Below are positions 8,545 to 27,145 of a stretch of 64,000 nt of DNA, one piece after another (within the stretch, counting starts at the first letter, position 1; each line of letters begins with the position of its first letter). The stretch is from Escherichia coli (lineage in GTDB: Bacteria; Pseudomonadota; Gammaproteobacteria; Enterobacterales; Enterobacteriaceae). Under the pieces are notes generated by a model, which was not told the DNA's origin, made no database searches, and saw only the letters and a list, made by a program, of their open reading frames with translations. The stretch lies in assembly GCF_003334765.1 (NCBI RefSeq), contig NZ_QOWT01000002.1; one strand, given 5' to 3'. A program made the position numbers and the translations under genes.

Positions 8545-8680
8545 CCTGCCATAACGTGAAGAAGCAATGACCTGGTGGTCCGTGACTTCCCTACGCTGGC
8601 ATTATCCAGATCAGGTGATACGGGTATTTCTCAGCCTTCACGCAGAAGGGCACCCCGAGTCGTTTGGTTGCGATGATAAA
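8545..8680 (-). promoter_or_regulatory. TPP (thi-box) riboswitch in the thiM 5' leader
   Basis: Minus strand reads GGGGUGCCCUUCUGCGUGAAGGCUGAGAAAUACCCGUAUCACCUGAUCUGGAUAAUGCCAGCGUAGGGAAGUCACG, the classic E. coli thiM TPP aptamer with the CUGAGA core, immediately upstream of the thiM AUG. Confidence 0.88.
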
Positions 8681-8758: not shown

Positions 8759-9031
8759 TTATTTGATATATGAATCCAGCACCTTCAGAACGACATCCAG
8801 ATCTTCTTCACGTTTTAGCTCATCCCCCTGGTGAACGATGTGTTCCGTCAGATGACCTTTAATCACTTCCCGCATCAGACCGTTTACCGCGCCACGGATA
8901 GCAGCAATCTGTTGTAAAACTGCAGCGCATTCGTGCGGCTCGTCGAGCATTTTCTTGAGCGCCACGACCTGGCCCTGAATCTTACTGGCACGCGCTTTCA
9001 GTTTCTGTTTATCACGGATTGTATGAGACAT
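8759..9031 (-). CDS. rcnR: Ni/Co-responsive transcriptional repressor (CsoR/RcnR family)
   Basis: 90-aa [50 protein letters not shown]...; divergent from rcnA. Confidence 0.9.
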
Positions 9032-9079: not shown

Positions 9080-9114
9080 TACTGGGGGGTAGTATCAGGT
9101 ACTGGGGGGGAGTA
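9080..9114. promoter_or_regulatory. Tandem RcnR operator sites (TACT-G6/7-N-AGTA) in the rcnR-rcnA divergent promoter region
   Basis: tactggggggtagta (9080-9094) and tactgggggggagta (9100-9114) seen directly; match the published RcnR recognition motif. Confidence 0.8.
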
Positions 9115-9151: not shown

Positions 9152-9976
9152 ATGACCGAATTTACAACTCTTCTTCAGCAAGGAAACGCCTGGTTCTTCA
9201 TCCCCAGCGCCATCTTACTTGGTGCGCTTCATGGCCTGGAACCAGGGCACTCAAAAACGATGATGGCGGCGTTTATCATCGCCATCAAAGGCACCATTAA
9301 ACAAGCGGTGATGCTCGGACTGGCAGCAACTATTTCGCATACCGCAGTGGTCTGGTTAATTGCCTTTGGCGGGATGGTGATCAGCAAGCTCTTTACTGCT
9401 CAATCAGCAGAACCGTGGCTCCAGCTGATTTCCGCAGTGATCATTATTAGCACCGCGTTCTGGATGTTCTGGCGTACCTGGCGCGGCGAACGCAACTGGC
9501 TGGAGAATATGCACGGGCATGATTATGAGCATCATCATCACGATCACGAACATCACCACGACCATGGACATCATCACCATCACGAACATGGCGAGTATCA
9601 GGATGCCCATGCACGAGCCCATGCCAATGACATTAAACGACGCTTTGATGGTAGAGAGGTCACCAACTGGCAAATTTTGTTATTTGGCTTAACCGGTGGC
9701 CTTATCCCCTGCCCGGCAGCAATTACCGTGCTGTTGATATGCATTCAGTTGAAAGCCCTGACACTGGGCGCAACACTGGTCGTCAGTTTCAGCATTGGCC
9801 TGGCGTTAACGCTTGTCACCGTAGGCGTTGGCGCAGCAATCAGCGTTCAGCAGGTCGCAAAACGCTGGAGCGGATTTAACACTCTCGCTAAACGCGCCCC
9901 CTATTTTTCCAGTCTGTTGATTGGCTTAGTCGGTGTGTATATGGGCGTACATGGCTTCATGGGCATAATGCGATAA
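9152..9976 (+). CDS. rcnA: Nickel/cobalt efflux permease with histidine-rich cytoplasmic loop
   Basis: 274-aa ORF; multi-TM; His-rich segment HGHDYEHHHHDHEHHHDHGHHHHHEHGEY. Confidence 0.9.
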   Translation: MTEFTTLLQQGNAWFFIPSAILLGALHGLEPGHSKTMMAAFIIAIKGTIKQAVMLGLAATISHTAVVWLIAFGGMVISKLFTAQSAEPWLQLISAVIIISTAFWMFWRTWRGERNWLENMHGHDYEHHHHDHEHHHDHGHHHHHEHGEYQDAHARAHANDIKRRFDGREVTNWQILLFGLTGGLIPCPAAITVLLICIQLKALTLGATLVVSFSIGLALTLVTVGVGAAISVQQVAKRWSGFNTLAKRAPYFSSLLIGLVGVYMGVHGFMGIMR

Positions 9977-10194: not shown

Positions 10195-10533
10195 ATGACC
10201 ATTAAAAATAAGATGTTGCTGGGTGCGCTTTTGCTGGTTACCAGTGCCGCCTGGGCCGCACCAGCCACCGCGGGTTCGACCAATACCTCGGGAATTTCTA
10301 AGTATGAGTTAAGTAGTTTCATTGCTGACTTTAAGCATTTCAAACCAGGGGACACCGTACCAGAAATGTACCGTACCGATGAGTACAACATTAAGCAGTG
10401 GCAGTTGCGTAACCTGCCCGCGCCTGATGCCGGGACGCACTGGACCTATATGGGTGGCGCGTACGTGTTGATCAGCGACACCGACGGTAAAATCATTAAA
10501 GCCTACGACGGTGAGATTTTTTATCATCGCTAA
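10195..10533 (+). CDS. rcnB: Periplasmic Ni/Co homeostasis protein RcnB (YohN)
   Basis: ORF 10015..10533; start moved to internal ATG giving MTIKNKMLLGALLLVTSAAWA (signal peptide), about 112 aa. Confidence 0.82.
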   Translation: MTIKNKMLLGALLLVTSAAWAAPATAGSTNTSGISKYELSSFIADFKHFKPGDTVPEMYRTDEYNIKQWQLRNLPAPDAGTHWTYMGGAYVLISDTDGKIIKAYDGEIFYHR

Positions 10534-19708: not shown

Positions 19709-22700
19709 ATGAGACACTTTATCTATCAGGACGAAAAATCACATAAATTCTGGGCGGTGGAGCAACAGGGAAACGAGTTGCATATCAGTTGGGGAAAAGT
19801 TGGCACCAAAGGGCAAAGTCAGATAAAAAGTTTTTCAGATGCTGCGGCAGCGGAAAAAGCGGAACTTAAGCTGATTGCGGAGAAGGTGAAGAAGGGGTAT
19901 GTGGAGCAAGCGAAGGATAATTCTTTGCAACCTTCCCAAACGGTAACGGGCTCTCTCAAGGTAGCGGACTTATCCACCATTATTCAGGAACAACCCTCTT
20001 TCGTAGCAGAAACCCGTGCGCCTGACAAAAATACAGATGCTGTTTTACCGTGGCTGGCGAAAGATATTGCTGTCGTTTTTCCGCCCGAAGTTGTACACAC
20101 CACGTTAAGTCATCGCCGCTTTCCCGGAGTTCCTGTTCAGCAAGCAGACAAATTGACCCAATTACGTCGCTTAGCCTGTAGTGTGTCGCAACGGGATAAT
20201 AAAACAGCCACATTTGACTTCAGCGCCTGTTCTTTAGAATGGCAAAACACCGTCGCCCAGGCGATCAGTCAGATCGACGGCCTGAAAACAACACAGTTAC
20301 CATCACCAGTAATGGCTGTACTCACGGCACTTGAAATGAAATGCACAAGATATAAAGTGCGTGAGGATGTTATGGATCAGATCGTCCAGGAAGGCGGTCT
20401 GGAATATGCTACTGATGTAATAATACACCTTCAACAGATTGATATTGAATGGGATTATGCGAATAATGTCATTATTATTCTGCCGTCTGGCATTGCACCT
20501 AGCTACTTGGAGCAATATTCCAGATTTGAATTACGCCTACGTAAACATTTATCACTGACGGAAGAGTCTCTCTGGCAAAAATGTGCACAAAAACTTATTG
20601 CCGCAATTCCACATATTCCAGAATGGCGGCAACCATTAATTGCTTTGTTATTACCCGAAAAACCAGAAATTGCACATGAAATTGCCCAGCGTCTACTGGG
20701 GCAAAAAAAATTACCCTCGCTTGAGTGGTTAAAAATAGTGGCGACTGATGAGCACATTCTTGCCTCATTAGAAAAATATCACGAACCATATGCCATTTTT
20801 GATGATTACTATTGTGGTGCGATATGGTCAGCCACCGTATTACAGGAGCAAGGTGTTGCAGCCCTGCCCCGATTTGCTCCCTATGCCGCAAGTGACTACT
20901 GCGCCGATGTGTTGCGTCATATCAATCATCCGTTCGCATTGACACTGCTTATACGTGTAGCCGGGCAAACTAAACGCTGTCACGATCGGATGACGAAAGC
21001 CATTGCTGCGTTCCCACATGCAGCAATGGCGGCACTGACGGAACTTCTTGGGCAAAAAGAAGAGAACAGTTGGCGCATTATGCTAATGACAATGCTTATC
21101 TCACAACCAGCACTGGCAGAACAGGTCATTCCCTGGCTCTCGACACCCGCAGTTGCCGTACTGAAATCATGCCAGCAACAACTGACACAGCCCTCAAACC
21201 ATGCCAGCGCCGATCTACTGCCAGCCGTAGTAGTCTCCCCTCCCTGGCTTTCGAAAAAGAAAAAATCGCCGATTCCGGTGCTGGATTTAGCGCCATTAGG
21301 CATTGAGCCAATCTGTTATCTGACAGAAGAAATCAGTAATCAACTTTTGGCGAAATATATCTGGTATTCAAAACACATCACGGTTAGCCATGAAGAAAGT
21401 ACTACCAACCTGTTGGCAAGGATGGGTTTTCAACGACGGATCGCTGGTACATATATTAAAGCTCCCGAAGCGGTAGTTGAGGCATGGCTAAATGAAGATT
21501 ATTCAACCTTACTAAGTGAATTTAAGGTGTTTCATTCACCTACCGGGCATTATTGGCAGTTGGGGATTTTGACAACATTGCCGCTGGAGAAAGCAGTAAA
21601 AGCATGGAATGCCCTTACCCTATCTCCACATACCGATACCGAATACTCCATGTTACATTTTGGACTCAAAGGGTTACCTGGGTTAGTAAACTCACTTGCA
21701 CGCTATCCACAAGAAGCCTTGCCCATCACGAATTACTTCGCAGCGAGTGAGCTGGCTCCTGCCGTCGCCCGTGCCTTCAACAAACTGAAAACGCTACGCG
21801 AAAACGCCCGTAGCTGGCTGTTGAAATACCCGGAACATGCCCTTACCGGCCTGCTGCCTGCGGCGCTCGGCAAAGCCGGTGAAGCACAGGATAACGCCCG
21901 CGCTGCCTTGCGTATGCTTACCGAAAACGGTCATCAGCCATTACTGCAAGAAATCGCCCGACGTTATAACCAGCCGGAAGTAACCGATGCGGTGAACGCT
22001 CTGCTTGCGCTCGATCCCTTAGATAATCACCCGACAAAAATCCCCACTCTTCCGGCCTTTTATCAGCCATCGCTCTGGACGCGCCCGGTATTAAAAGCAA
22101 ATGCCCAATCACTGCCAGATAGCGCCCTCCTCCACCTCGGTGAAATGCTCCGCTTCCCTCAGGAAGAGGCTCTGTATCCGGGATTATTGCAGGTGAAAGA
22201 CGTCTGTTCCGCCGACTCACTGGCGGGATTTGCCTGGGATCTGTTTACCGCCTGGCAGACCGCTGGCGCGCCGTCGAAAGAGAGTTGGGCGTTCACTGCG
22301 TTAGGCGTTCTCGGTAACGATGACACCGCCCGCAAACTGACGCCATTAATACGCGCCTGGCCTGGTGAATCCCAGCATAAACGCGCCACCGTTGGGTTGG
22401 ATATTCTCGCTGCTATCGGTAGTGATATCGCCCTTATGCAGCTTAACGGCATCGCCCAGAAACTGAAATTCAAAGCATTACAGGAGCGGGCAAAAGAAAA
22501 AATTGCCGACATTGCCGAGAGCCGCGAACTCACGGTGGCGGAGCTTGAAGATCGGTTAGCACCGGATCTCGGTCTGGATGATAACGGTTCGCTGCTGCTG
22601 GATTTTGGCCCACGGCAGTTCACCGTCAGCTTTGATGAAACCTTAAAACCGTTTGTGCGTGATGTTTCCGGCAGCCGCCTGAAAGACCTGCCCAAACCGA

Positions 22701-23503
22701 ACAAAAGCGATGATGAAACGCGGGCGAACGATGCGGTTAACCGCTACAAATTGCTGAAAAAAGATGCGCGTACCATCGCCGCCCAGCAGGTAGCAAGGCT
22801 GGAATCCGCCATGTGCCTGCGCCGCCGCTGGTCGCTGGAAAACTTCCAGCTCTTCCTGGTTGAGCATCCGCTGGTTCGTCACTTAACCCGCCGTCTGATT
22901 TGGGGCGTTTATAGCGCCGAAAACCAGCTACTGGCTTGCTTTCGCGTAGCAGAAGATAACAGCTCCAGCACCGCTGACGATGATCTTTTCACCCTGCCGG
23001 AAGGCGATATCTCTATCGGCACTCCTCACGTTCTGGAAATATCACCAACGGATGCTGCCGCCTTTGGTCAGCTTTTTGCCGACTACGAACTGCTACCACC
23101 GTTCCGCCAGCTCGACCGTAACAGCTACGCCCTGACAGAAGCCGAGCGCAATGCCAGTGAACTGACCCGCTGGGCAGGCAGAAAATGCCCGAGTGGTCGG
23201 GTCATGGGGCTGGCGAATAAAGGCTGGATAAAGGGCGAACCACAGGATGGAGGCTGGATCGGATGGATGATCAAACCTTTGGGTCGCTGGTCGTTAATCA
23301 TGGAAATCGATGAAGGCTTTGCGGTAGGCATGTCGCCAGCCGAACTCAGCGCTGAGCAGCTCTTAAGCAAGCTGTGGCTATGGGAAGGCAAAGCAGAAAG
23401 ATATGGCTGGGGGAGTAATTCAACACAGGAAGCGCAGTTCTCCGTAATCGATGCCATCACCGCCAGCGAGCTAATTAACGATATTGAAGCCCTGTTTGAA
23501 TAA
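19709..23503 (+). CDS. molR: MolR: N-terminal WGR domain fused to a large YehI-like (DUF4132-type) body; intact 1264-aa form
   Basis: Single uninterrupted ORF; N-terminus MRHFIYQDEKSHKFWAVEQQGNELHISWGKVGTKGQ has the WGR signature; the remainder aligns by eye with YehI. Confidence 0.85.
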   Translation: MRHFIYQDEKSHKFWAVEQQGNELHISWGKVGTKGQSQIKSFSDAAAAEKAELKLIAEKVKKGYVEQAKDNSLQPSQTVTGSLKVADLSTIIQEQPSFVAETRAPDKNTDAVLPWLAKDIAVVFPPEVVHTTLSHRRFPGVPVQQADKLTQLRRLACSVSQRDNKTATFDFSACSLEWQNTVAQAISQIDGLKTTQLPSPVMAVLTALEMKCTRYKVREDVMDQIVQEGGLEYATDVIIHLQQIDIEWDYANNVIIILPSGIAPSYLEQYSRFELRLRKHLSLTEESLWQKCAQKLIAAIPHIPEWRQPLIALLLPEKPEIAHEIAQRLLGQKKLPSLEWLKIVATDEHILASLEKYHEPYAIFDDYYCGAIWSATVLQEQGVAALPRFAPYAASDYCADVLRHINHPFALTLLIRVAGQTKRCHDRMTKAIAAFPHAAMAALTELLGQKEENSWRIMLMTMLISQPALAEQVIPWLSTPAVAVLKSCQQQLTQPSNHASADLLPAVVVSPPWLSKKKKSPIPVLDLAPLGIEPICYLTEEISNQLLAKYIWYSKHITVSHEESTTNLLARMGFQRRIAGTYIKAPEAVVEAWLNEDYSTLLSEFKVFHSPTGHYWQLGILTTLPLEKAVKAWNALTLSPHTDTEYSMLHFGLKGLPGLVNSLARYPQEALPITNYFAASELAPAVARAFNKLKTLRENARSWLLKYPEHALTGLLPAALGKAGEAQDNARAALRMLTENGHQPLLQEIARRYNQPEVTDAVNALLALDPLDNHPTKIPTLPAFYQPSLWTRPVLKANAQSLPDSALLHLGEMLRFPQEEALYPGLLQVKDVCSADSLAGFAWDLFTAWQTAGAPSKESWAFTALGVLGNDDTARKLTPLIRAWPGESQHKRATVGLDILAAIGSDIALMQLNGIAQKLKFKALQERAKEKIADIAESRELTVAELEDRLAPDLGLDDNGSLLLDFGPRQFTVSFDETLKPFVRDVSGSRLKDLPKPNKSDDETRANDAVNRYKLLKKDARTIAAQQVARLESAMCLRRRWSLENFQLFLVEHPLVRHLTRRLIWGVYSAENQLLACFRVAEDNSSSTADDDLFTLPEGDISIGTPHVLEISPTDAAAFGQLFADYELLPPFRQLDRNSYALTEAERNASELTRWAGRKCPSGRVMGLANKGWIKGEPQDGGWIGWMIKPLGRWSLIMEIDEGFAVGMSPAELSAEQLLSKLWLWEGKAERYGWGSNSTQEAQFSVIDAITASELINDIEALFE

Positions 23504-23512
23504 GGAAAGAGC

Positions 23513-26500
23513 ATGGACAAGGAATTACCGTGGCTGGCGGATAACGCCCAACTGGAACTGAAATATAAAAAAGGCAAAACGCCGCTCAGTCATCGTCGCT
23601 GGCCGGGCGAACCAGTGTCCGTTATCACTGGAAGTCTCATCCAGACATTGGGTGATGAATTGCTACAAAAAGCTGAGAAGAAAAAAAACATTGTCTGGCG
23701 TTATGAGAATTTTTCACTGGAGTGGCAGTCCGCCATCACGCAGGCCATCAACTTGATCGGCGAACACAAACCCTCAATCCCGGCCCGGACAATGGCGGCG
23801 CTAGCCTGTATCGCGCAAAATGACAGCCAACAGTTGCTCGACGAAATCGTCCAACAAGAGGGGCTGGAATATGCGACTGAGGTGGTGATTGCACGCCAGT
23901 TTATTGCGCGGTGTTATGAGAGTGATCCTCTGGTAGTGACATTGCAGTATCAGGACGAGGATTATGGCTATGGTTATCGCTCAGAAACCTATAACGAATT
24001 CGATCTCCGACTGCGTAAGCATCTCTCTCTGGCAGAGGAAAGCTGCTGGCAGCGTTGCGCCGACAAACTCATTGCCGCACTACCAGGAATAACCAAAGTT
24101 CGCCGCCCTTTTATTGCGCTGATCCTCCCGGAAAAACCAGAAATAGCCAATGAGTTGGTAGGCCTTGAATGCCCGCGAACTCATTTTCATTCTAAGGAGT
24201 GGTTAAAAGTTGTTGCTAATGACCCCACAGCGGTGAGAAAACTCGAACACTACTGGAGCCAGGATATATTTAGCGATCGAGAAGCCAGCTACATGTCGCA
24301 TGAAAACCACTTCGGCTACGCGGCCTGCGCCGCCCTTTTGCGCGAACAAGGACTGGCAGCCATTCCGCGCCTCGCGATGTATGCCCATAAAGAAGATTGC
24401 GGCAGTCTGCTGGTACAAATTAACCATCCGCAAGTCATCCGCACCTTGCTACTGGTGGCTGATAAAAACAAACCCAGCCTGCAACGTGTAGCTAAATACC
24501 ATAAAAACTTCCCCCATGCGACGCTCGCCGCACTGGCAGAACTGCTGGCGTTAACAGAACCACCAGCCCGCCCTGGTTATCCAATCATCGAAGACAAAAA
24601 GCTGCCTGCACAGCAAAAAGCACGCGATGAATACTGGCGTACGCTGTTACAAACGCTGATGGCATCGCAGCCACAACTGGCAGCAGAAGTGATGCCGTGG
24701 TTAAGTACTCAACCCCAGTCAGTGCTGAAGAGTTATTTATCGGCACCGCCCAAACCGGTTATTGATGGCACCGATAACAGCAATCTGCCAGAAATCCTCG
24801 TTTCACCACCGTGGCGTAGTAAGAAAAAAATGACAGCTCCACGTCTTGATTTGGCACCGCTCGAATTAACTCCGCAAGTTTACTGGCAACCAGGCGAACA
24901 AGAGAGGCTTGCCGCCACTGAGCCTGCCCGTTATTTCAGCACGGAATCTCTTGCGCAACGCATGGAACAAAAAAGTGGACGAGTTGTATTACAGGAACTG
25001 GGTTTTGGGGATGATGTATGGCTGTTTCTGAATTATATACTCCCCGGAAAACTGGATGCTGCACGCAATTCACTCTTTGTTCAGTGGCATTACTACCAGG
25101 GGCGGGTTGAAGAGATCCTGAATGGCTGGAACTCCCCGGAAGCACAATTAGCAGAACAGGCGCTCCGCAGCGGTCACATAGAAGCGTTAATTAACATATG
25201 GGAAAATGACAACTACTCACATTATCGTCCGGAAAAGAGTGTCTGGAACCTGTATTTATTGGCACAGTTGCCGCGTGAGATGGCTTTGACCTTCTGGCTG
25301 CGTATCAATGAGAAAAAGCATCTGTTCGCGGGTGAGGACTATTTTCTCAGTATCCTCGGATTGGATGCGCTACCAGGTCTGCTGTTGGCTTTTTCACATC
25401 GTCCAAAAGAAACATTTCCGTTAATTTTAAATTTTGGCGCAACAGAACTGGCGCTGCCTGTTGCCCACGTCTGGCGACGTTTCGCGGCGCAGCGTGATCT
25501 GGCTCGCCAGTGGATTTTACAATGGCCGGAACATACGGCTAGTGCACTTATCCCTCTTGTCTTTACCAAACCCAGCGATAATAGCGAAGCCGCATTACTT
25601 GCCCTGCGTTTACTGTACGAACAGGGACATGGCGAATTGCTACAAACCGTGGCAAACCGCTGGCAGCGTACAGATGTATGGTCTGCCCTGGAGCAGTTGC
25701 TTAAACAGGATCCAATGGACATTTACCCGGCACGCATTCCAAAAGCCCCTGATTTCTGGCATCCGGCAATGTGGTCCAGGCCTCGACTTATCACTAATAA
25801 TCAGCCTGTTACCGGTGACGCTCTGGAAATTATCGGCGAAATGCTGCGCTTTACCCAGGGGGGACGTTTTTATAGCGGGCTGGAACAACTGAAAACGTTC
25901 TGCCAGCCACAAACGCTGGCAGCTTTTGCCTGGGATCTCTTCACTGCGTGGCAACAAGCTGGTGCCCCCGCAAAAGACAACTGGGCATTTCTGGCGTTAA
26001 GTCTCTTTGGTGACGAAAGCACGGCACGGGATCTGACGACACAGATCCTCGCCTGGCCACAAGAAGGCAAATCTGCCCGTGCTGTCAGCGGCCTGAACAT
26101 CCTTACCCTGATGAATAATGATATGGCGCTGATACAGCTGCATCATATATCGCAACGGGCTAAATCCCGCCCCTTACGTGATAACGCGGCGGAATTTCTT
26201 CAGGTGGTCGCAGAAAATCGCGGGCTAAGCCAGGAAGAGCTAGCGGACAGATTAGTCCCAACCCTGGGCCTTGATGATCCGCAGGCGTTGAGTTTTGATT
26301 TTGGTCCCCGGCAGTTTACCGTTCGCTTCGATGAAAACCTCAACCCGGTTATCTTTGATCAGCAAAACGTTCGCCAGAAAAGCGTTCCCCGTTTGCGCGC
26401 CGATGACGATCAACTGAAAGCGCCCGAGGCACTGACCCGACTAAAAGGGCTAAAAAAAGATGCTACTCAGGTGAGCAAAAACCTGCTCCCGCGTCTTGAA

Positions 26501-27145
26501 GCTGCCCTACGTACCACCCGACGCTGGTCGCTGGCAGATTTTCATTCTCTGTTTGTTAATCATCCCTTTACCCGTCTGGTTACCCAGCGATTAATATGGG
26601 GGGGTTATCCGGCAAATGAACCGCGTCGTTTACTCAACGCCTTTCGTGTGGCCGCAGAGGGGGAGTTCTGCAATGCGCAAGATGAGCCAATTGACCTGCC
26701 TGCGGACGCTCTGATTGGCATTGCCCACCCGTTAGAAATGGCAGTAGAAATGCGCAGTGAATTTGCACAGCTTTTTGCCGATTACGAAATTATGCCGCCT
26801 TTTCGCCAGTTGTCGCGCCGCACGGTGCTGCTCACACCTGACGAGTCAACCAGTAACAGCCTGACTCGCTGGGAAGGTAAATCCGCTACCGTTGGGCAAC
26901 TTATGGGAATGCGATACAAAGGCTGGGAGTCAGGCTATGAGGACACATTTGTCTATGACCTGGGCGAGTACCGGCTGGTCCTTAAGTTTTCACCCGGTTT
27001 TAACCACTACAATGTTGATAGCAAAGCGTTAATGAGCTGCCGTTCTCTTCGAGTGTACCGTGACAATAAATCCGTCACTTTTGCCGAACTTGATGTGTTT
27101 GATTTGAGTGAGGCGTTAAGCGCACCTGACGTCATTTTCCATTAA
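23513..27145 (+). CDS. yehI: YehI, large DUF4132-family protein, paralogue of the MolR body (no WGR domain)
   Basis: 1210-aa ORF starting 9 nt after the molR stop with RBS aggaaaga; multiple blocks conserved with MolR. Confidence 0.85.
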   Translation: MDKELPWLADNAQLELKYKKGKTPLSHRRWPGEPVSVITGSLIQTLGDELLQKAEKKKNIVWRYENFSLEWQSAITQAINLIGEHKPSIPARTMAALACIAQNDSQQLLDEIVQQEGLEYATEVVIARQFIARCYESDPLVVTLQYQDEDYGYGYRSETYNEFDLRLRKHLSLAEESCWQRCADKLIAALPGITKVRRPFIALILPEKPEIANELVGLECPRTHFHSKEWLKVVANDPTAVRKLEHYWSQDIFSDREASYMSHENHFGYAACAALLREQGLAAIPRLAMYAHKEDCGSLLVQINHPQVIRTLLLVADKNKPSLQRVAKYHKNFPHATLAALAELLALTEPPARPGYPIIEDKKLPAQQKARDEYWRTLLQTLMASQPQLAAEVMPWLSTQPQSVLKSYLSAPPKPVIDGTDNSNLPEILVSPPWRSKKKMTAPRLDLAPLELTPQVYWQPGEQERLAATEPARYFSTESLAQRMEQKSGRVVLQELGFGDDVWLFLNYILPGKLDAARNSLFVQWHYYQGRVEEILNGWNSPEAQLAEQALRSGHIEALINIWENDNYSHYRPEKSVWNLYLLAQLPREMALTFWLRINEKKHLFAGEDYFLSILGLDALPGLLLAFSHRPKETFPLILNFGATELALPVAHVWRRFAAQRDLARQWILQWPEHTASALIPLVFTKPSDNSEAALLALRLLYEQGHGELLQTVANRWQRTDVWSALEQLLKQDPMDIYPARIPKAPDFWHPAMWSRPRLITNNQPVTGDALEIIGEMLRFTQGGRFYSGLEQLKTFCQPQTLAAFAWDLFTAWQQAGAPAKDNWAFLALSLFGDESTARDLTTQILAWPQEGKSARAVSGLNILTLMNNDMALIQLHHISQRAKSRPLRDNAAEFLQVVAENRGLSQEELADRLVPTLGLDDPQALSFDFGPRQFTVRFDENLNPVIFDQQNVRQKSVPRLRADDDQLKAPEALTRLKGLKKDATQVSKNLLPRLEAALRTTRRWSLADFHSLFVNHPFTRLVTQRLIWGGYPANEPRRLLNAFRVAAEGEFCNAQDEPIDLPADALIGIAHPLEMAVEMRSEFAQLFADYEIMPPFRQLSRRTVLLTPDESTSNSLTRWEGKSATVGQLMGMRYKGWESGYEDTFVYDLGEYRLVLKFSPGFNHYNVDSKALMSCRSLRVYRDNKSVTFAELDVFDLSEALSAPDVIFH

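Follow-up and report, generated by a model that had tools for sequence, protein, structure and literature searches.

What does the histidine-rich loop in the middle of the Ni/Co efflux permease RcnA do, and how free is the repetitive DNA that encodes it to change in length? A preliminary description of a 64,000-nt stretch of Escherichia coli DNA (referred to here as the window) had presented the loop as low-complexity sequence that is encoded by CAT/CAC-rich repeats, is prone to length variation by slippage, probably binds Ni/Co, and generates a spurious antisense open reading frame (ORF). We consider it highly probable that the central loop of RcnA combines a slippage-variable tract with a conserved motif and has a putative role in capturing or buffering Ni/Co, and that the antisense ORF is a by-product. 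The gene and its neighbors lie in the window as follows.

9152-9976, + strand: rcnA (yohM), Ni/Co efflux permease of the NicO family, 274 aa (from the ORF list and profile matches)
8759-9031, - strand: rcnR, Ni/Co-responsive repressor, divergent from rcnA (from NCBIfam NF011613 and annotation)
9080-9094 and 9100-9114, + strand: two RcnR operators, TACT-G6-N-AGTA, in the rcnR-rcnA intergenic region (exact matches)
10195-10533, + strand: rcnB, periplasmic accessory protein of the efflux system (from strain H3, annotation of its identical stretch)

The assignment of the loop to RcnA was borne out by the protein itself and by its setting. The 274-residue product scored 556.8 bits against NCBIfam NF007454 (cut-off 195), with residues 1-274 aligned to profile positions 1-283, and residues 13-273 matched the Pfam NicO family PF03824 (1e-69); there were weak further matches to DsbD_2 and SfLAP. 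At the DNA level, several E. coli strains have an rcnA that is 100% identical to the gene, the rcnA of K-12 is 99.9% identical to it over 825 nt, and strain H3 carries an identical stretch in which the gene is annotated as rcnA. Of 5426 complete E. coli genomes, 5366 carried the gene. The divergent rcnR product matched NCBIfam NF011613 with 197 bits (cut-off 138), and the RcnR operator consensus TACT-G6-N-AGTA, taken from PMC7055735, had two exact matches in the window compared to none in 100 shuffles. The role of rcnB in the efflux system is described in PMC7055735, and Ni/Co efflux has been assigned to K-12 RcnA (PMC11247825, PMC7055735). The wider setting is the standard gatY...galS chromosomal stretch. 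The ORF at 9152-9976 is rcnA in the canonical rcnR-operator-rcnA-rcnB layout. K-12 RcnA (YohM), for which PMC11247825 and PMC7055735 cite Iwig et al. 2006 and Rodrigue et al. 2005, has this same layout and a loop of identical sequence and length; the two proteins differ by one amino acid outside the loop, R80 in K-12 being L80 here.

Some features of the gene and its surroundings stand apart from the loop. Leu80 in the window protein (CTC, 9389-9391) was Arg80 in the seven other E. coli alleles compared, while the window's exact rcnA allele is common to several strains. A TPP riboswitch lies at 8571-8667 on the - strand, between thiM and rcnR and upstream of thiM-thiD (strain H3 annotation). 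Farther along on the + strand are two tandem genes with DUF4132 domains, molR-like and yehI, at 19709-23503 and 23513-27145 (1264 and 1210 codons), followed by yehL, yehM, yehP, and yehQ with ATPase, DUF5682, vWA, and SWIM domains, a cluster whose function is poorly known.

The stretch to which the preliminary description referred, HGHDYEHHHHDHEHHHDHGHHHHHEHGEYQDAHARAH, corresponds to RcnA residues 121-157 and is encoded on the + strand by nt 9512-9622; the stretch itself was correct, but the coordinates given for it, 9513-9625, began 1 nt late and ran 3 nt too long. Its parts are as follows.

9512-9595, + strand: variable His/Asp/Glu-rich low-complexity tract, HGHDYEHHHHDHEHHHDHGHHHHHEHGE, residues 121-148 (from the translation and allele differences)
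9533-9589, + strand: tandem repeat of 18 nt (6 codons), imperfect, with 3.2 copies and 76% matches (score 79 in Tandem Repeats Finder)
9602-9622, + strand: C-terminal part of the loop, residues 151-157, with the conserved motif D-A-H-A-R-A-H (from the homologue alignment and the AF2 helix)

Residues 121-157 contain 19 His in 37 positions, encoded by 12 CAT and 7 CAC codons. The next-best 37-residue stretch in all six frames of the 64-kb window has at most 8 His, and a binomial model with 2.3% His gives P ~9e-22 for the observed count. At the nucleotide level, CAY occurs 20 times in the 111 nt of the stretch, whereas the window averages 3.7 and its second-highest count is 13. The 18-nt repeat, which is also direct-repeat family D1, encodes HHHDHE/HHHDHG/HHHHHE. 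This CAY excess and the repeat agree with the description of the DNA as CAT/CAC-rich and repetitive, though the repeat is imperfect, and the longest perfect tracts in the window allele are CAT x3.7 (11 nt) and ATCACG x2.2 (13 nt). As bounded by LENM and NDIK, the loop of this allele has 38 residues and 19 His.

The preliminary description had proposed a comparison of loop length among strains, and we made it across complete E. coli genomes; all allele frequencies reported here are estimates from identity bands and systematic 60-row samples. With a 231-nt query centered on the loop, 672 of 5364 complete genomes fell below 95% identity. The sampled rows below that level were all length variants, and the window length was kept in 51 of 60 sampled rows. 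We estimate that loop length differs from the window's in ~12% of the 5,364 complete genomes and is kept in ~87%. The rcnA genes in a systematic 60-row sample measured 804, 810, 825 (most of them), 846, 849, 852, or 858 nt, and an alignment placed all in-frame length differences among the alleles examined inside the loop. The best 120 E. coli/Shigella protein clusters yielded 45 different loop sequences, 38-64 residues long and containing 17-34 His; when compared by eye, some of them resemble duplications of 9-, 12-, or 18-residue blocks. Genomes supplied further loops of 31 and 33 residues, and the range in E. coli is thus 31-64 residues. The loop length differences between these E. coli alleles all fall within residues 121-148.

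Alleles of the O157 type were isolated by using an O157:H7 allele as query under a strict E-value limit. O157-type rcnA was found in 242 genomes, with sampled spans of 258, 264, 270, and 276 nt. Where the span was 258 or 270 nt, the loss of identity consisted of a 6-nt gap alone, with identical flanks, indicating that O157:H7-type alleles differ solely in the number of GACCAC (Asp-His) units. Perfect GACCAC tracts in the O157-type alleles examined were 32-56 nt long, with (DH) tracts of 5-9 units, and a second variable class of alleles carries perfect tracts of the GAGCAC (Glu-His) type, 26-32 nt long. One of the 242 matches lies on a plasmid-labelled record, which could reflect a mislabelled replicon or a mis-assembly.

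The window allele is of another kind. It contains no perfect tandem GACCAC/CACGAC array, its longest perfect period-6 tract being 13 nt, and its 38-residue length was constant over 14 point-variant loop sequences with 17-19 His in 38 residues. The absence of a long perfect tract and the stability in length are explained by interruption of the repeats through both synonymous and non-synonymous changes. The view of the stretch as prone to slippage thus holds for the locus, where GACCAC units change, and only weakly for the window allele, which is the common K-12-type form, interrupted, length-stable, and much less slippage-prone than the locus as a whole.

We also considered whether rcnA might be a phase-variable contingency locus that acts as an on/off switch and rejected this idea because all loop variants examined were multiples of 3 nt and in frame. 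Disrupted or altered genes were seen in individual strains. In PSJ-29 (locus 301-1103), rcnA is a frameshifted pseudogene of 803 nt, 22 nt shorter than the window allele, with a 22-bp deletion in the C-terminal membrane part and a loop identical to the window's. In 81EVA (NZ_CP138397.1, locus 1404-2930), an IS3-family element truncates rcnA inside the loop, at about window position 9547, which leaves the 3' part of the gene from about query position 96; rcnR is unannotated in the upstream 2.5 kb. OkiPb01708 (locus 301-1149) has a 46-residue loop and a stop in place of the final Arg274, and its coding sequence ends 3 nt early.

Variation at this site has been used for strain typing under other names. 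[quoted passage not shown]

9433-9451, + strand: TR7 (O157-19) forward primer site (PMC2246123)
9775-9794, - strand: TR7 (O157-19) reverse primer site (PMC2246123)

TR7 is the same locus as O157-19, which has a 6-bp unit and gave five alleles among 15 isolates (PMC3768571). The Salmonella MLVA locus STTR5 is (CACGAC)n within yohM, and its units have been gained and lost during laboratory passage (PMC5183578, PMC1781188, PMC3391293). The likeness between TR7/O157-19 and STTR5 lies in the genomic site and in the GACCAC/CACGAC Asp-His unit found there; the window allele differs from both in having no GACCAC array and in belonging to a length class that is stable in most E. coli. The feature is thus already known, both as the His-rich loop of RcnA and as the TR7/O157-19/STTR5 variable-number tandem repeat (VNTR) site. 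The site can serve as a typing marker because the tract grows and shrinks in whole codons, and differences in rcnA length between assemblies are to be taken as real VNTR alleles, amounting to in silico MLVA at TR7/O157-19, rather than as assembly errors.

Such mutability could itself be what is selected. The number of DH or EH units might act as an evolutionary knob that sets the capacity of RcnA or its selectivity for Ni versus Co, with lineages adapting their metal tolerance by changing copy number. The rapid changes in unit number within the clonal O157:H7 lineage, where the flanks are identical, would fit such a role, and metal selection on copy number has been raised as a speculation (PMC3391293). 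STTR5 alleles are concentrated in the middle of their range, and extreme alleles drift back on passage, which was read as a constraint from YohM function (PMC5183578); the mid-range bias is also explained by a length-dependent direction of mutation (PMC5183578). Our literature search found no phenotype linked to particular alleles, and the commonest E. coli allele, that of the window, has lost the mutable tract, which would be odd if tunability were selected. We regard this explanation as unlikely. A more specific form of it, in which the number of DH/EH units tunes efflux or selectivity, cattle-associated O157:H7 tracks metal exposure by means of its fast-mutating tract, and the K-12-type allele is "locked", seems to us quite unlikely.

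The loop, in our preferred reading a putative metal-capturing or buffering arm, has two parts, and comparison with homologues separates them. In treating the whole stretch as low complexity, the preliminary description was right for residues 121-148; residues 151-157, DAHARAH, are instead a conserved family motif with a predicted helical structure. H153 and H157 were each identical in ~90% of 70 aligned family members, H153 was nearly invariant in an alignment of 50 sequences (A1), and the pattern D-x-H-x-[RLQK]-x-H was matched by half of 69 full-length homologues. This level of conservation is comparable to that of H27/E30/H33 and G183/P186/C187 in the membrane part. Conservation is at least 90% for H27, E30, P31, G32, H33, K35, H63, and H153, G183, P186, and C187 were invariant in alignment A1, and all of these residues are present in the window protein. 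The conserved membrane-site motifs of the family are H-G-L-E-P-G-H (first helix) and G-G-L-x-P-C-P (fourth helix).

The remainder of the loop is far more variable across the family. In the 69 full-length homologues it ranged from 9 to 245 residues, with a median length of 50 and a median His fraction of 0.30. In a few members the loop is short or poor in His (9 residues, one of them His, in P0175; 22 residues and no His in P0182; 50 residues, three of them His, in P0149), so the His-rich tract is not indispensable to the fold. Divergent homologues, at 30-50% identity, have His-rich loops built from unrelated repeat units, including HS, HG, HD, HP, and HE.

These data bear on whether the loop is simply a permissive linker in which CAY/GAY repeats have expanded neutrally, its His-richness amplified by slippage with no selected role in metal binding. 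A length tolerance as broad as that seen within E. coli and across the family, and the existence of the His-poor loops of P0182, P0149, and P0175, are what neutral expansion would predict. It would also accord with the outcome of our literature search, which found no metal-binding measurements on the RcnA loop and, among coordination-chemistry papers on such peptides, none on RcnA. Against it, His-richness (median 30%) recurs in divergent homologues whose repeat units are unrelated, and the 14 window-type point variants retain their 17-19 His even though their repeats are interrupted. Because His-richness recurs in distant homologues with unrelated loops and repeat units, the sequences argue that composition has been under selection, and against common descent from a single repeat. 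We therefore think neutral expansion rather improbable as an account of the loop.

Structural prediction is consistent with the division of the stretch into two parts. The AlphaFold2 (AF2) model of RcnA had a mean pLDDT of 82 and a pTM of 0.73. It placed coil at residues 122-151, with mean pLDDT 57-67 in blocks covering residues 121-160, and a helix at residues 152-165 that starts in the DAHARAH motif. A sequence search of the PDB with RcnA returned compositional matches to His tags and His-rich segments (CbiX, PA4063) and no structure of the family, and a Foldseek search of the AF2 model against the PDB found no usable structural relative (best E-value 0.69). Kyte-Doolittle segmentation over-split the helices, and only the loop Lys/Arg counts were taken from it; the loop has 8 flanking Lys/Arg, in agreement with the positive-inside rule. 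Since the loop of an RcnA homologue has also been predicted to be cytoplasmic (PMC11247825), the loop of the window RcnA is probably cytoplasmic.

Taken together with the variation among alleles, these predictions allow a model of the loop and its putative role in metal capture or buffering. The loop sits between the N-terminal and C-terminal helix bundles of the RcnR-regulated Ni(II)/Co(II) permease. Residues 121-148 form a disordered His/Asp/Glu-rich tract encoded by imperfect 6- and 18-nt CAY/GAY repeats, and the length of this tract shifts in whole codons across strains and species by replication slippage and by larger duplications between repeats. Residues 151-157 are a conserved family motif, predicted to be helical, that is free of length variation. 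On the cytoplasmic side, the His-rich tract may act as a loosely specified, multivalent arm that captures or buffers Ni/Co and that hands metal to, or gates, a membrane site comprising the near-invariant H27, E30, H33, H63, H153, P186, and C187. Changes in length would be tolerated because composition alone matters for such a role. The Ni/Co binding proposed in the preliminary description is plausible, being a reasonable expectation from the composition of the loop and from the His-richness of loops across the family.

Loops of this general type are found in other metal transporters. Members of the CDF (ZnT, CzcD, MTP1) and ZIP families have disordered, His-rich, length-variable cytoplasmic loops between transmembrane helices, and are considered to serve in binding, sensing, or buffering the metal that is transported. 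The resemblance is one of loop type, as the folds and families are unrelated, RcnA belonging to NicO PF03824. A closer parallel is the RcnA of cable bacteria, a member of the same family with a loop at the same position that is predicted to be cytoplasmic and has been proposed to chelate or chaperone Ni; its loops are larger, with 100-123 residues and 33-53 His compared to 38 residues and 19 His in the window protein (PMC11247825). According to PMC11247825, which cites Iwig 2006, it is still undecided if RcnA exports metal or chelates it by means of this loop.

The codons of the stretch might also matter, in that a run of NAY codons could make RcnA synthesis sensitive to the charging of His-tRNA or to queuosine (Q) modification and so tie efflux capacity to the state of histidine and tRNA. 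Of the 37 codons, 25 are of the NAY type (His, Asp, Tyr), whose tRNAs carry the queuosine modification, and Ni/Co resistance is altered in E. coli deficient in Q (PMC9508795). That study, however, credits the down-regulation of nikABCDE and not RcnA, and rcnA is there merely Ni-induced, leaving translational coupling very improbable.

Three ORFs overlap the loop on the other strand or in another frame.

9404-9673, - strand: antisense mirror ORF, 89 aa, TTG start, Met/Val/Ile-rich, not a gene (ORF list)
9519-9692, + strand: overlapping ORF, 57 aa (ORF list)
9447-9614, - strand: overlapping ORF, 55 aa (ORF list)

The antisense ORF at 9404-9673 is present as the preliminary description stated, and its dismissal there as spurious was upheld. 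It mirrors, codon for codon, 91 codons of rcnA among which TTA, TCA, and CTA are absent, and it is bounded by the rcnA sense codons TCA (codon 85) and TTA (codon 177); the frame is open partly because His, Asp, Glu, and Gly codons never give antisense stops. No Shine-Dalgarno sequence was found upstream of the ORF, and its product had no NCBIfam match. In L003 and L004, two other alleles, its far (C-terminal) boundary is displaced by 51 codons, and the ORF becomes longer or shorter with the VNTR. CAT/CAC changes that are synonymous in rcnA swap Met and Val in the antisense frame, and 5 of the 7 allele differences outside the loop are synonymous for rcnA compared to 3 of the 7 for the antisense frame, small numbers that make this a weak indication. 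That the frame encodes a real small hydrophobic protein, as its 89 open codons, many internal ATG/GTG codons, and strongly hydrophobic would-be product might suggest, is extremely improbable in view of its exact rcnA register, its TTG start without a Shine-Dalgarno sequence, the missing family match, the boundary that moves between alleles, and the direction, on small numbers, of the synonymous changes. The ORFs at 9519-9692 and 9447-9614, with Ile/Thr-rich and Arg/Asp-rich products, are likewise spurious by-products of the CAY/GAY repeat composition, and annotators should call no antisense or +2-frame ORFs across 9404-9692.

For the window itself the finding matters little, as both the gene and its feature are textbook material. 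The stretch is best read as a variable tract followed by a conserved DAHxRAH motif, and the motif is the better target for mutagenesis.

In many RcnA homologues, the same loop contains a conserved domain of ~95-100 residues with His-rich tracts on both sides. Among the 150 representatives, carriers include P0121 (371 aa, Enterobacter mori/E. cloacae complex), P0123 (386 aa, Achromobacter/Bordetella), P0133 (379 aa, metagenomic), and about 30 others (alignment A2). The consensus of the domain is IDTGHG..LE.FE.G.PPRFRL...R..G..Q.F.F....G.LES...IPEPH.F...L.L.H.GH.H.Y. A Pfam search with the domain returned no match, and its AF2 model is a confident 8-strand beta-sandwich (pLDDT 90.5). A Foldseek search of this model against the PDB gave no significant hit; the best (TM ~0.6) were CBM56 and the Cu/Ag-binding CrdA of H. 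pylori. The presence of an unannotated beta-sandwich domain in the same loop of so many homologues suggests that the RcnA loop may be a modular slot for cytoplasmic metal-handling modules.
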